NCBI GenBank assembly: GCA_040830765.1
Contig: JBFOMH010000005.1
Coordinates: 1-64,000, forward strand
From: Puniceicoccaceae bacterium
GTDB lineage: Bacteria; Verrucomicrobiota; Verrucomicrobiia; Opitutales; Oceanipulchritudinaceae
DNA length: 64,000 bases
Reading direction: 5' to 3'
In this document: piece after piece, positions 8,050 through 13,259 of the stretch
Position numbering within the stretch: the stretch's first letter is position 1
Layout: every line of letters begins with the position of its first letter
Position numbers and translations under genes: made by a program
Notes under the pieces: model-generated
Told to the model about the DNA's origin: nothing
The model's input: only the letters and a program-made list of their open reading frames with translations
Databases searched by the model: none

Positions 8050-9702
8050 ATGGCCGATCGAATCACCGGGGAACCATTTGCCACCCGCAGCGAAGTGCTC
8101 GGGAAGAACGGCATGGTTGCCACCAGCCAGCCGTTGGCGGCTCAGGCGGGCCTGGACATTCTCAAGGGTGGGGGAAACGCCGTTGATGCCGCCATCGCCG
8201 TCAATGCCTGCCTGGGATTGATGGAGCCAACGGGGTGTGGCATCGGGGGTGACCTCTTTGTTCTTCTGTGGGACGCAAAGTCCCGACAACTGCACGGTCT
8301 CAATGCCAGTGGCCGCAGCGCCGAGGGAGCCTCCCTCGATGATATGGGACGGTTGCTTAAGTCCATGGAAATCAACAAAATACCCAACCTCGGTCCGCTC
8401 TCCGTTTCCATCCCGGGCTGTGTTGACGGGTGGTCTGTCCTTCATGAGCGGTTTGGACAACTGCCTATGGATAAAGTCCTCGCCCCGGCGATTCAGTCCG
8501 CCCGGGAAGGATTTCCGGTCACGGAGGTGATCGCTCATTACTGGGCCGCCACAGTGGAGACCCGGGCCCAGTATCCGGGATTTTTAGAGGCTTTGACCCT
8601 CGATGGACGCGCTCCGGCGAAAGGGGAGATCTGGAAAAACCCGGACCTGGCCGATACCTATGCCATCATCGCCGAACTCGGCCGGGATGCCTTTTACACA
8701 GGCGACATGGCCCGAGTCATGGCGGAGTTCCTCGAGAAACATGGTTCCTTCCTCCGCTACGAGGACTTTGCCGGCCACACGTCTGAATGGGTAAAGCCTA
8801 TTTCCACGAACTACCGCGGCTATGATGTCTGGGAACTCCCGCCAAACGGACAGGGACTGGCTGCATTGCAGATTCTCAACATCCTGGAAGGATTTGATTT
8901 TTCTCAACCCTCATTCGGCTGTGTCGACCATCTTCATGCCTTTATTGAGGCCAAGAAATTGGCTTATCACGATCGGGCATTGGAATATGCCGATCCACAC
9001 TTTCACGAAGTGCCCCTGGAACGGCTTCTTTCCAAGGATTACGCTTCAAGCCAGAGAAAGCAGATCAACCCCATGAAGGCCGCTCTCAACATTCCGCCGG
9101 ATCCGGATGAATTGCGGCAAGGCGATACCGTATACCTAGCCACGGCGGACAGTGAGGGGAACATGGTCTCCTTTATCCAGAGTAATTACCGCGGTGTCGG
9201 CTCAGGGCTCTTTCCACCAGGCCTGGGATTTGGATTCCAGAGTAGGGGATCCGGATTTTCCATGGACCCGGAACACGCCAACGCCTATGCCCCCGCGAAG
9301 CGGCCCTTCCACACCATTATCCCCGCCTTTATCGCCAAGGACGACCAACCGCTCTGCGCCTTTGGCGTCATGGGTGGAGATACCCAGCCCCAGGCCCATG
9401 CCCAGATTGTCATGAACATGGTCGATTTCGGGATGAACCTCCAGGAAGCGGGTGACGCTCCCCGTATCGTCCACTCCGGTGATTCCGATCCTTCCGGCAC
9501 CCGCATGCTCGATGGCGGGCATGTCGCCCTTGAGTCCGGATTTCCTCCGGATGCGGTCAATGAGCTGAAGGCGAGGGGACACAGCCTTATCGAGGGCAAG
9601 GGCTCTTTCGGCGGCTACCAAGCCGTCTGGCGGGATCCGGAAACCGGTGTCTATGCCGGGGCTAGTGAGTCCCGCAAGGATGGGCAGGCGGTTGGGTATT
9701 AA
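8050..9702 (+). CDS. ggt: Gamma-glutamyltransferase family protein (no signal peptide)
   Basis: Motifs GGNAVDAAIA, GIGGDLF, ELPPNGQG, the Thr nucleophile in GDTVYL, KRPFHTIIP and GVMGG are present. Confidence 0.93.
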   Translation: MADRITGEPFATRSEVLGKNGMVATSQPLAAQAGLDILKGGGNAVDAAIAVNACLGLMEPTGCGIGGDLFVLLWDAKSRQLHGLNASGRSAEGASLDDMGRLLKSMEINKIPNLGPLSVSIPGCVDGWSVLHERFGQLPMDKVLAPAIQSAREGFPVTEVIAHYWAATVETRAQYPGFLEALTLDGRAPAKGEIWKNPDLADTYAIIAELGRDAFYTGDMARVMAEFLEKHGSFLRYEDFAGHTSEWVKPISTNYRGYDVWELPPNGQGLAALQILNILEGFDFSQPSFGCVDHLHAFIEAKKLAYHDRALEYADPHFHEVPLERLLSKDYASSQRKQINPMKAALNIPPDPDELRQGDTVYLATADSEGNMVSFIQSNYRGVGSGLFPPGLGFGFQSRGSGFSMDPEHANAYAPAKRPFHTIIPAFIAKDDQPLCAFGVMGGDTQPQAHAQIVMNMVDFGMNLQEAGDAPRIVHSGDSDPSGTRMLDGGHVALESGFPPDAVNELKARGHSLIEGKGSFGGYQAVWRDPETGVYAGASESRKDGQAVGY

Positions 9703-9729
9703 AGAGATAACCACAGTATCCAGGAACAT

Positions 9730-9783
9730 GCAGGATGCCTGTACTCTATTCCAACCAAGGGTCTACAAGGCGCCCTGCCTGTA
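9730..9783. repeat. Degenerate REP family A copies
   Basis: GCAGGATGCCTGTACTC nearly matches the reverse complement of GAGTACAGGCATCTTGC at 37307. GGTCTACAAGGCGCCCTGCCTGTA is a second degenerate unit. Confidence 0.55.
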
Positions 9784-9794
9784 TAATCCCCGGC

Positions 9795-11057
9795 TCAATC
9801 TACATCGACCCCCATGCGGATGAAATGGACATCCGCTCCATCGGGTTCCACTTGAATGATGCCTTCAACATCTTCGTAAAGGGGATTCTCCCCTTTGTTG
9901 GCATTCTCTTCATAGATTGGATTGCTCGTACTTAACGGTTCGAAGAGCAATGATTCCGGTGCCATCCAAGGAATCGGACCGATATTCGGATCATCCGTCC
10001 GGCGTCGGAAATTCAAGCGAATAACGGGTCCTTCGGGCGTGTTCATCCTTGTCACCCTGACAGCTTCTTGGGGCAGGGTGAACTCATTGGGATTGGTCAC
10101 GAGGGTGAACTCGACGATTGTCGGGATGTTGTCCTTGTCCGGATCTCCGATCGGCGAAGCAAAGGCCGGGTCAAGGAGTTCCTCGCGGGAAAAATTTGCC
10201 GCCATGAAGGCTTCAAACGGCGTCATCTCCACATCGATCATCACCGCAAAGGAGCGTGAAGTCCGGTTAACCCCGTCGGATACCCGGACTGTGATGCTGG
10301 CAACCCCTGAGTATAGGGCCGAAGTGCGCGCAGTCAGGGTTCGACGCAGCCCCGTGCCGGAAATCGCCAGGTCGAGAATCATCTCCGGCCGGTCCGTCTC
10401 AACCGTGATTTCAAGTTGGTCGGGCGGTGTCTCCACCTCGTTGATGACAATCAGGACGTCGATGGGGGAAGCCGTCCCAGTCGAAACGTCGGGAATCAGA
10501 TCCAGCGTCGGAGGCTCATTGCCCCCGGAAGCCTCTCCGGTATTCGTCGGGATATCCCACCAGCTCCGGGCCTGGTAGAGAACGATCCCATCTGTATCTA
10601 ATTCCCAATACGTTGACTCGATATACGTGTAATTCAGCGAGAAATCCTCCTCAGGAGGATCACCCTCCGCATTTCCGTTGGTTGAGTAGGAAGAAATCAT
10701 CACGTTATGCAGCTTATACTTCAGGTAGGTTGTCTCGCCCCGCGTCGTCAAGCGGGTCACGTCCAGCTCCAGCTCGGCAATCACTTCACCCGTGGCCAAA
10801 GCGCTCATCATGCGCGCAGAGGCATTATCCGTCTTCTTGGTCAGGTTTAATTCACTGAAATCCGGCGGGGGAGGGGGAATCCCCTTGCTGACCGAGATCC
10901 CGTTGAAATAACTCTGCACAGGGATCCAGTTCGCGTGGGCGTCATCCGTCGATTCCCCCTCGACACCCTCCCACCTCAAATAGTGGGGGGCTTCCATCGC
11001 CGTTCCGAAGACAGCCAGAAGGCAAAACAGGAAGAGCAACCTGCGTTGGTGGATCAT
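9795..11057 (-). CDS. Secreted Hcp-domain fusion protein (signal peptide + Hcp + Ig/cadherin-like + C-terminal domain)
   Basis: Signal peptide MIHQRRLLFLFCLLAVFGTAMEA. Hcp motifs GVEGES...H.NWI, FSELNLTKKTDNAS, YLKYKLHNVMISS and E.FSLNY..I. Then NEPPTL...ITVRVSDG and a C-terminal DPDKDN...EF...FIRMGV region. Confidence 0.8.
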   Translation of the reverse strand: MIHQRRLLFLFCLLAVFGTAMEAPHYLRWEGVEGESTDDAHANWIPVQSYFNGISVSKGIPPPPPDFSELNLTKKTDNASARMMSALATGEVIAELELDVTRLTTRGETTYLKYKLHNVMISSYSTNGNAEGDPPEEDFSLNYTYIESTYWELDTDGIVLYQARSWWDIPTNTGEASGGNEPPTLDLIPDVSTGTASPIDVLIVINEVETPPDQLEITVETDRPEMILDLAISGTGLRRTLTARTSALYSGVASITVRVSDGVNRTSRSFAVMIDVEMTPFEAFMAANFSREELLDPAFASPIGDPDKDNIPTIVEFTLVTNPNEFTLPQEAVRVTRMNTPEGPVIRLNFRRRTDDPNIGPIPWMAPESLLFEPLSTSNPIYEENANKGENPLYEDVEGIIQVEPDGADVHFIRMGVDVD

Positions 11058-11091
11058 GGGCCTCAATAGATTAGGACTGGATTACGTCAGC

Positions 11092-11655
11092 CTAGGGGGT
11101 GTTCTGGACCACGTCCCACGTGAAGGGCTCCACGCCGGATGGCCTCCCGTCGGGGAGAGTCGAGTAGTCTACCTTGATACGGGTGAAATTCAGGGTGACG
11201 TTTTCCGTTATCCGGTCCTCGCCGCCACTGCCACCGGTGGATATGGAGGTGATGATCACATCTGTCATCGTGATCTTCATATAGGTCTGGGTCTCGCCCC
11301 CGGTTCCCGTCCGGGTAAGGCTCAATTCAACCGTGCCGAAGACGGTTCCCGAGGCACAGGAAGTCATCAGCGCAGGTGTGGACTTATCGATGTACTTGGT
11401 CATCGATAAATCATCGAAATTGACCCCGCCGGATATCCGCTCACCACCGCCTGCGCCAGACGTGTTCACCGGATTGTACATGCCCCAGTCAATCGACAGG
11501 ACATCGATCCATTTATCATGATTCGAATCCTTCGACTCTCCGTCCACGCCGTCATATTTTGCAAAGACTGCTCCGTTAACCGTGCTCGCCAGTCCCAGGA
11601 TCATCAAGGCCGCGAGCCACCGCCTTGTCCCCCCAAAGCTCGTTATCCAGTTCAT
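11092..11655 (-). CDS. hcp: Hcp1-family tube protein with N-terminal signal peptide
   Basis: Motifs DGVDGESKDSNHDKWIDVLSIDWG, FDDLSMTKYIDKSTPAL, YMKITMTDVIITS and ENVTLNFTRIKVDY. They are preceded by RRWLAALMILGLASTVNG-A. Confidence 0.88.
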   Translation of the reverse strand: MNWITSFGGTRRWLAALMILGLASTVNGAVFAKYDGVDGESKDSNHDKWIDVLSIDWGMYNPVNTSGAGGGERISGGVNFDDLSMTKYIDKSTPALMTSCASGTVFGTVELSLTRTGTGGETQTYMKITMTDVIITSISTGGSGGEDRITENVTLNFTRIKVDYSTLPDGRPSGVEPFTWDVVQNTP

Positions 11656-11791
11656 TCCTTGAATCTAACCACCGGGGCAGGGGCCTGTCAAAGGTTTAGC
11701 ATTAGGTGAACTGTAGAGGCCTATTAGAAGGCGTATTCTCCAGAGAATCAATCTTTTAGACATAATACATATTGTACCTTCTATATGCACA

Positions 11792-11816
11792 GAATCCCGC
11801 TGAATTAGCGGGATTC
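11792..11816. terminator. Hairpin downstream of the DUF4097 gene (probable terminator)
   Basis: GAATCCCGCT-gaatt-AGCGGGATTC is an inverted repeat. The U-tract on the minus strand is weak. Confidence 0.5.
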
Positions 11817-11846
11817 CGTTTCTTGTAAAAACTGAACTGGATGAAA

Positions 11847-12791
11847 TCAGTTTGGATTCAGGTTGATACTGCCGGAACCGGTACTGATTTTGAGATTGGG
11901 GCCGCCATTGGCGGTTGCGCCATCGAGGGAGCGTTTCTTCGCGACAGGATCGACGAGGTCAAAGCCACAGTTGATGCTGCCGCTACCGACACCGGCATTG
12001 AGGACGAATCCGGCTGTCGGCGGGAGAAGAATTTTGACACCACCACTTCCGGTGGCGGCCTTGGAGTCCTCGACCAATTCGACAGACGACTCGATGCGGA
12101 CGCTTCCGGAACCGGTTTTGGCGGTAAACTGGCTGATCTGCCCGACGGCGTTCACGCTGCCGGATCCGGTGGCGGCATCGAGGCTACCCTCCATGTCGCT
12201 GACCTTGATACTGCCGGAACCCGTACGGACTTTTATGTTCCCCTCGACTGCGACGAGATTGATCTGTCCGGAGCCGGACTTGGCTTGAATCTCACCGGTC
12301 AGGTCGCTGCCGCTGACACTTCCGCTGCCGGTCGCAAAGTGAAGGACGCCGGTGATGGCATCGACCGAAACAGCACCGGAGCCATTTTTCAGGTGCAGAT
12401 CCATGTCTTGAGGAACTTTCACGGTAATATTGGCACCCGATGACTTGGAGCTTTTAAAGATGCTGAACCAAGAGCTGTTTTTGCGCTTGGTCTTCACAAC
12501 AACCGCCAAAACGCCTTCCTCCTCCTCAATGGACACTTCAGCTTCATCGAAGATTTCATCAGCTGCGGCCTGGTCCGAGGCCTTGGCGTATAATTCGACT
12601 TCGACAACTACGCTCCCGCGGTCCCAGCTGGAAACCGCTACATGGGCGGATTGTGCCTGAAGGTCGACTTTCTCAATACTTCCGGAATCAAATTCCCGGA
12701 TAATTTCCCTTGTAAATCCCTCGGCCGAGAGAAATCCCGGCGCAGCGAAGGCGACGAGAGCAAGAACAGTGATAGGTTTGATTGGTTTCAT
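11847..12791 (-). CDS. Secreted DUF4097 (putative adhesin) beta-strand repeat protein
   Basis: Signal peptide MKPIKPITVLALVAFAAPGFLSA, followed by many TGSGS(V/I) repeats. Confidence 0.85.
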   Translation of the reverse strand: MKPIKPITVLALVAFAAPGFLSAEGFTREIIREFDSGSIEKVDLQAQSAHVAVSSWDRGSVVVEVELYAKASDQAAADEIFDEAEVSIEEEEGVLAVVVKTKRKNSSWFSIFKSSKSSGANITVKVPQDMDLHLKNGSGAVSVDAITGVLHFATGSGSVSGSDLTGEIQAKSGSGQINLVAVEGNIKVRTGSGSIKVSDMEGSLDAATGSGSVNAVGQISQFTAKTGSGSVRIESSVELVEDSKAATGSGGVKILLPPTAGFVLNAGVGSGSINCGFDLVDPVAKKRSLDGATANGGPNLKISTGSGSINLNPN

Positions 12792-13013
12792 GATATTTTG
12801 CTGCATATGCGATAGAATTGCGATTAATGTGCCAATTGACACAGGTGATTCGCAAACATCTGCCTGCAGGTTACTTATAATTTTGGTCAAAGGCGAATTT
12901 TTTCGCCGAAGCCCCCTTTTTGGCGATAATTTGGCGAAATTTGCCAAATCCGGGCACAAAAAAGCCCTGTCGCGCATTTACGGACAGGGCCTGAAAATTG
13001 GTTCGAAACTCCC

Positions 13014-13259
13014 CTACTTGCGGCGGCGGAACTTCGTTTGGAACTTCTCGACGCGACCGGCGGTATCGACAAAGCGCTTTTCACCGGTGTAGACCGGGTG
13101 GGAATCGCTGGTGATATCCCGCACGACAACGAAGTACTCGACTCCGTCGATGGTTTCCTTCTTGTCGGACTTGATAGTCGAGGTGGTCAGAAAATTCTTG
13201 CCCGTAGAAACGTCACGGAAGCAAACCGGATGGGTTTTCGGATGAATATCAGTCTTCAT
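13014..13259 (-). CDS. rpmE2: 50S ribosomal protein L31 type B
   Basis: MKTDIHP...[23 protein letters not shown], without the CxxC zinc pairs. Confidence 0.93.

Follow-up and report, generated by a model that had tools for sequence, protein, structure and literature searches.

The first 64,000 nucleotides of contig JBFOMH010000005.1 from a marine Puniceicoccaceae bacterium (GenBank assembly GCA_040830765.1; this whole stretch is the window throughout) carry two adjacent open reading frames (ORFs) on the reverse strand that code for Hcp proteins: ORF B, a short Hcp, and, directly downstream of it, ORF A, in which the Hcp domain is followed by an immunoglobulin (Ig)-like domain and a C-terminal end module. 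Hcp counts as a hallmark of type VI secretion. Export-type leaders are nevertheless conserved on both proteins, as judged from alignments, and core genes of a type VI secretion system (T6SS) were not found in the genome of the window or in those relatives in which the pair occurs. We lean, with somewhat better than even confidence, towards the view that the pair is a two-gene cassette of Hcp-fold proteins that would act outside the cytoplasm, independently of any T6SS.

Two Hcp-fold proteins encoded in tandem

Both ORF A and ORF B carry true Hcp folds. The Pfam family T6SS_HCP (PF05638; cut-off 23.5 bits) matches ORF B with an E-value of 2e-39 (135.3 bits) and residues 29-153 of ORF A with an E-value of 1.6e-26 (93.5 bits). 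The NCBIfam model TIGR03344 (cut-off 58.9 bits) separates the two: ORF B, with 66.6 bits, passes, and ORF A, with 45.9 bits, falls short. These two are the sole Hcp matches in their genome, a 3.99-Mb draft in 40 contigs that is 96.9% complete. Leaderless Hcps of 160 amino acids (aa) share 45-53% identity with ORF B, whose mature part is 48-52% identical to the six canonical 160-aa Hcps in its alignment. Database annotation labels such proteins T6SS tube proteins or effectors.

An AlphaFold2 model of ORF A, built with 16 homologs (mean pLDDT 83.7), consists of a low-confidence helix (aa 5-20), an Hcp barrel (aa 28-181), a seven-strand sandwich (aa 194-277), a set of short helices (aa 283-335) and a second sandwich (aa 336-420). 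Foldseek searches with the whole model returned Hcp chains exclusively, with template modelling (TM) scores by target of 0.77-0.89 to the Hcp1 structures 4w64, 3eaa, 7fcf and 1y12. The Ig-like domain is recognized weakly by the Pfam family Big_9, with an E-value of 0.015 and 16.6 bits, under the gathering cut-off of 23.6; in the relative P0025 the same family reaches 19 bits. In relatives, giant ORFs contain tandem repeats that match at the same profile positions as this domain. At E-values up to 1, T6SS_HCP and Big_9 are the only Pfam families on ORF A.

The initial annotation had described ORF A as an Hcp fused to an Ig- or cadherin-like domain and a C-terminal module, with a further Hcp upstream. 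This architecture holds: all the strings quoted in its support are present in ORF A, Pfam, AlphaFold2 and Foldseek agree on it, and the upstream Hcp is real, being ORF B. The start of the protein was placed too far in, at position 10990, a choice that drops the first ~26 residues and with them a signal-peptide-like leader that had gone unnoticed. The frame of ORF A opens with a TTG, from which residues are counted here. As read from the sequence, its real start is probably the ATG at position 11057, 34 nt from the stop of ORF B, which gives a protein of 420 aa: this codon is favoured because GAGG lies 3 nt upstream of it and an identical database entry uses the same start.

Export-type leaders on both proteins

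In the alignment of the long form (alignment A1), 13 of the 16 homologs begin with a leader of 21-30 aa that has K/R residues and a hydrophobic core and that closes with a small residue at position -1; a further member, P0011, is a fragment. In the leader-bearing homologs this small residue falls directly before Hcp strand 1. The leader of ORF B is kept in its 78%-identical ortholog P0069, and similar leaders are found in P0071, P0075, P0092, P0135 and the partner at locus L004; in the alignment of ORF B, the six canonical Hcps have a lead-in of just 4 residues before strand 1. The hydrophobic cores of the leaders reach maximum Kyte-Doolittle means, taken over 10 residues, of 2.6-3.5. We infer that both proteins would be exported by the Sec pathway, with their leaders cut just before Hcp strand 1.

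Absence of T6SS core genes

Profiles of the sheath proteins VipA/TssB (PF05591) and VipB/TssC (PF05943), of gp25/TssE (PF04965), TssF (PF05947) and VasE/TssK (PF05936), and of Phage_GPD/VgrG (PF05954) and Phage_sheath_1 (PF04984) each gave 0 matches in the genome of the window; E. coli, which served as the positive control, was matched in every one of these searches. TssC is likewise absent from all nine of the genomes that carry the full-length ORF A architecture. Among 61 relatives it rises above the cut-off in one only, G017, and in another, G003, there is a weak match under the threshold. In G017, a relative from the same family, TssC (G017:C80:46718-48525) adjoins a leaderless canonical Hcp, a pairing that makes a useful natural control; with G017 at 74% completeness and 5% contamination, the TssC locus could be a contaminant. 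The genome of the window has three secretins, so in principle there is a way across the outer membrane.

A short-then-long order conserved in distant genomes

Full-length matches to an ORF A profile occur in nine of 61 genomes (the genome of the window, G000, together with G007-G011, G015, G032 and G033), and in eight of these nine a short Hcp lies directly upstream of the full-length form. Three further loci, in G051, in G004 and at a second site in G007, have a short Hcp-like ORF followed by a protein with the leader-Hcp-Ig arrangement. When the ORFs of 12 loci were compared all against all, the pair alone proved common to distant genomes, and flanking genes were shared within a genus only: by this gene-content comparison, the order of short Hcp followed by long Hcp is the sole conserved thing around the pair. 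The public names of family members are those of Puniceicoccaceae and Opitutales. The family also includes longer variants of ~820-865 aa, namely L004:4666-7263 from a metagenome-assembled genome of Opitutaceae and P0025, P0027, P0029 and P0030, in which the Hcp domain stands mid-protein after an N-terminal region of ~450 aa without a Pfam family, so that the fold is internal to a multidomain, export-type protein. The locus L005 reads frameshifted in the tail and was excluded from the alignments.

ORF A and ORF B are both covered, and the junction between them is bridged, by two contigs, X5 (positions 9554-11563) and X6 (9789-11514), which come from oligo-dT metatranscriptome libraries of two runs in one study. 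The RNA-library contigs stop before the upstream gene, and the contigs of a DNA run continue. Taken together, the RNA-library contigs give a faint hint of expression and co-transcription of the pair. Runs labelled mollusc metagenome, of DNA and of RNA libraries, and runs of a coded 'organism A' contain sequence near-identical to positions 9000-13200 of the window, with 0 differences in the contigs compared; the bacterium may be associated with an animal.

The C-terminal end module of ORF A

Folded alone with 39 sequences, residues 279-423 of ORF A gave an AlphaFold2 model of pLDDT 90.4 and pTM 0.81, with five short helices followed by a sandwich of six to seven strands. The sandwich ends in the motif FIRM, 6 residues before the stop, and the module itself stops 1-2 residues short of the stop codon of ORF A. 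Foldseek found no match to it in the PDB at an E-value of 1e-3 or better; its top rows are FN3 domains of cytokine receptors and Ig domains (best E-value 4.9e-3), a generic result. VIA-align, run against 48,161 chains, had its best Z-scores, 8.6 and 8.2, with FN3 domains of cytokine receptors as well, a level that the tool rates as common. No Pfam or NCBIfam family, toxin families included, matches aa 279-423 at E-values up to 1, and no enzyme or toxin fold stood out in the structure searches of this region.

Six residues in this module, D308, D310, D312, T316, E319 and R417, are invariant across the 16-sequence alignment. The first five of these fall at positions 1, 3, 5, 9 and 12 of the calcium-loop pattern of the EF-hand or TSP3 type, and the loop that holds them is likely to be a Ca2+ site as predicted from this spacing; the Pfam family TSP3_bac has no match on ORF A at E-values up to 1. 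Mean column identity of the module across the Hcp-linked family is 52%.

A profile of the tail, searched against the six-frame ORFs of the genome of the window, matched 15 further ORFs of 388-5363 aa under a threshold of E<0.01, with E-values from 9.5e-13 to 8e-3. In nearly all 15 the matched region lies near the C-terminus, and most of them have signal-peptide-like starts and F-x-R-L-type tails a few residues before the stop (FRLR, FMRLR or FIRLR, where ORF A has FIRM). The longest, an open frame of 5363 aa outside the window (G000:C5:393887-409975, forward strand), ends in the module: it matches profile positions 27-143 with an E-value of 3e-8 and has the tail LFRLRI. A structure search of the ESM Atlas with aa 279-423 gave TM-scores of 0.73-0.80 to clusters from Verrucomicrobiota, which carry fn3, CBM_4_9, LTD or FAD-oxidoreductase domains. 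These profile matches and models place the tail of ORF A, a non-toxin, in a clade-wide end module, an uncatalogued one that stands near the C-terminus of many exported proteins of Verrucomicrobiota.

A single-sequence search with the tail, which covered 1.84 billion representatives, returned 55 matches, and the whole tail is almost confined to Hcp fusions: 28 of the matches are to proteins of 405-455 aa, 4 to proteins of ~820-860 aa and 13 to fragments, and the other 10 are to other architectures, mostly over the first ~85 residues. The Hcp-linked tail is thus a distinct, well-conserved subfamily of the broader end module. Within this subfamily, and only there, the sandwich loops at aa 383-399 hold a duplicated N-P-[LI]-Y-E and a near-invariant P-W-M-A-P-E-S.

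Coordinates and neighbourhood of the cassette

Table 1. Features of the Hcp cassette, in positions of the window; residues of ORF A are counted from its TTG
Feature	Position	Strand	Evidence or remark
ORF B, short exported-type Hcp, 187 aa	11092-11655	-	Pfam T6SS_HCP and TIGR03344
ORF B leader (predicted), ~aa 1-29	11569-11655	-	mature Hcp ~aa 30-187
Spacer from ORF B stop to ORF A TTG, 25 nt	11067-11091	-	sequence reading
ORF A: leader, Hcp, Ig-like domain, C-terminal end module	9795-11066	-	423 aa counted from TTG
ORF A leader (predicted), aa 1-26	10989-11066	-	basic n-region, hydrophobic core, Ala at -1
ORF A Hcp (TssD-fold) domain, aa 27-182	10521-10988	-	Pfam and Foldseek
ORF A Ig-like (Big_9/cadherin-like) beta-sandwich, aa 183-278	10233-10520	-	AlphaFold2 strands; weak Big_9 match
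ORF A C-terminal end module, aa 279-423 (145 residues)	9798-10232	-	AlphaFold2, VIA-align, profile and Atlas
D-x-D-x-D-x-x-x-T-x-x-E loop, 12 residues, aa 308-319	10110-10145	-	invariant positions in 16 sequences

On the 3' side of ORF A lies a convergent gene for a gamma-glutamyltranspeptidase (PF01019, E-value 6.5e-153), and there is no small immunity-like gene on that side at the locus. The one other ORF there (9202-9729, reverse strand) lies inside the gamma-glutamyltranspeptidase gene, on the opposite strand to it, and matches no family. On the 5' side of the Hcp pair is a gene of the DUF4097 'toastrack' or LiaG-like kind (11847-12977, reverse strand), with a Pfam E-value of 1.3e-16; the NCBIfam model LiaG matches its product with an E-value of 3.3e-26 and a score far under that family's cut-off. 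We considered this gene as a member of the cassette and rejected it: it is syntenic in loci of the same genus only, and there is a break in the RNA-library contigs between it and ORF B.

Hcp-ETs, which are Hcps with a C-terminal extension toxin, have been described for Enterobacteriaceae, and it was with these that the initial annotation compared ORF A, proposing that its extension is structural or adhesive, that no immunity gene follows and that the protein might be a surface tether for an Hcp polymer. The extension is indeed free of any recognizable toxin, being made up of the Ig-like domain, an EF-hand-like loop and an FN3/Ig-like sandwich, and the toxin fold that would have told against the idea was not seen. 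The absence of an immunity gene holds as well, since what comes next is the convergent gamma-glutamyltranspeptidase. What has to be given up is the T6SS and Hcp-ET frame, in view of the conserved Sec-type leaders and the lack in this genome of every T6SS or contractile-tail core gene tested. Outside that frame, ORF A may still be regarded as a candidate surface tether for an Hcp polymer, an idea in keeping with its tail, an end module that other exported proteins of the same genome carry too.

Proposed function and alternatives

If the two proteins are extracytoplasmic, they could work as follows. Both would leave the cell via Sec and lose their leaders just before Hcp strand 1. ORF B, at ~50% identity to canonical Hcps, would still build rings of the Hcp type, and ORF A would enter or nucleate such rings by way of its own Hcp domain. 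The end module would then address or fasten the assembly to the cell surface, presumably as it does for its other carriers, with passage perhaps through one of the three secretins. The co-assembly of ORF A with ORF B is put forward as a hypothesis; a prediction of the complex between mature ORF B and the ORF A Hcp domain, with a score of 0.16 (mark 0.32), carries no weight either way. A bolder version sees in the pair a new envelope or surface structure, a T6SS-free appendage or cage in which the exported short Hcp would form rings or a non-contractile tube, and the tagged Hcp would cap or root it with Ca-dependent fixing to the surface. This we offer as a tentative idea, and a rather unlikely one.

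Several observations weigh against extracytoplasmic action free of a T6SS. Two of the 16 long-form homologs, P0003 and P0018, begin right at Hcp strand 1, and the database entries for ORF B and for its ortholog, P0068 and P0070, are called from an internal Met, with 12 residues of leader remaining. Leader cleavage was judged by eye and with a hydropathy script. ORF B is above the NCBI cut-off for T6SS tube proteins and is thus an ordinary Hcp by sequence alone, and the absence of T6SS genes rests on a draft in 40 contigs. One carrier of the long form, G033, has no listed short partner (this genome is 69% complete), and the RNA-library contigs reveal neither strand nor transcription. Lastly, it is profile and structure matches that tie the Hcp tail to the broader end module, because whole-tail matches in the single-sequence search were nearly confined to Hcp fusions.

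The main rival explanation accepts that both proteins are exported and holds that they act separately, each as a stand-alone protein of the envelope or surface whose Hcp ring or barrel would be a scaffold for binding or for a chaperone role. On this view neither a mixed polymer nor a tether would exist, and ORF A would simply add to the cargoes of the end-module pathway. We take this to be a serious possibility, though on balance we doubt it. The end module does occur on many unrelated exported proteins, and the two Hcp domains have diverged, as the TIGR03344 scores of 45.9 bits for ORF A and 66.6 for ORF B indicate; however, a short-then-long order with almost no spacer, kept across distant genomes, suggests functional coupling, and the bridging of the junction by the RNA-library contigs points weakly in the same direction. 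The leaders could also be uncleaved signal anchors that hold the Hcp domains, unreleased, on the inner membrane and facing the periplasm. Their long hydrophobic cores, with the Kyte-Doolittle values of 2.6-3.5 given above, would suit such a role, as would the c-region of ORF A, which ends in MEA followed by P and so lacks a textbook A-x-A site. We consider this arrangement improbable, since the small residue at -1 lies directly before Hcp strand 1 in most homologs, and the end module is found elsewhere on proteins with ordinary signal-peptide-like starts.

Two further explanations keep the pair within type VI secretion or toxin biology. The two proteins might be ordinary T6SS parts, ORF B forming the tube and ORF A acting as an Hcp-ET-like cargo carrier, of a system that is either unassembled in the draft or too divergent to detect. 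The match of both to PF05638, the score of ORF B above the TIGR03344 cut-off and its ~50% identity to Hcps named T6SS tube proteins all speak for this, as does the state of the genome, a 40-contig draft at 96.9% completeness. We nonetheless judge it very improbable: all seven core families are missing from this genome and TssC from all nine full-length carriers, the leaders are conserved, the Hcp domain is internal in the 860-aa forms, and the tail, which no immunity gene accompanies, is an FN3-like module common to other exported proteins and not a toxin. That ORF A is a polymorphic toxin with an unrecognized C-terminal toxin is a proposal to which we give hardly any credence, despite a layout of Hcp plus extension that resembles Hcp-ET. 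No Pfam toxin family matches at E-values up to 1 and the fold is FN3/Ig-like; the module is conserved, with its 52% mean column identity, and not polymorphic; no fewer than 15 other ORFs of the genome carry it as well, and ORF A has no adjacent small gene. Extracytoplasmic action of a two-gene Hcp cassette, without a T6SS, stays the reading that we prefer.

Implications and comparison with known systems

If exported Hcps that work without a T6SS are real, annotations that take Hcp as their basis over-call T6SS in Verrucomicrobiota, and the ring-forming Hcp fold is put to a second use outside the cytoplasm. The cassette also offers a handle on the end module, for it sets a small foldable cargo, Hcp, side by side in a tagged and an untagged form. 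We found no published description of signal-peptide-bearing Hcps, nor one of the end module of Verrucomicrobiota; the portion of PMC3482391 that lists Hcp1 fusions as T6SS toxins does not mention exported Hcps.

With the Hcp/TssD proteins of T6SSs (Hcp1 of P. aeruginosa, 1y12; that of A. baumannii, 4w64; EvpC of E. tarda, 3eaa) ORFs A and B share fold and family. They differ from them in having a conserved export leader and in occurring in a genome without genes for sheath, baseplate, spike or TssK; ORF A, in addition, falls under the TIGR03344 cut-off. With Hcp-ET, ORF A has in common an N-terminal Hcp domain followed by a C-terminal extension. Unlike in Hcp-ET, that extension is composed of an Ig-like domain and an FN3-like end module, neither an immunity gene nor a T6SS goes with it, and a signal-peptide-like leader is present.

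The C-terminal part resembles the end module of other Verrucomicrobiota proteins, with which it shares the Asp-rich loop, the FN3-like sandwich and an F-x-R-[LM] strand near the stop. From the Por_Secre_tail domain of the type IX secretion system (T9SS) of Bacteroidota it is set apart by phylum and by the lack of a Pfam match to that family on ORF A at E-values up to 1; the T9SS machinery itself was not searched for. The two are comparable by an analogy of position and fold class: each is a small beta-sandwich found at the very C-terminal end of many unrelated proteins that are exported by Sec.

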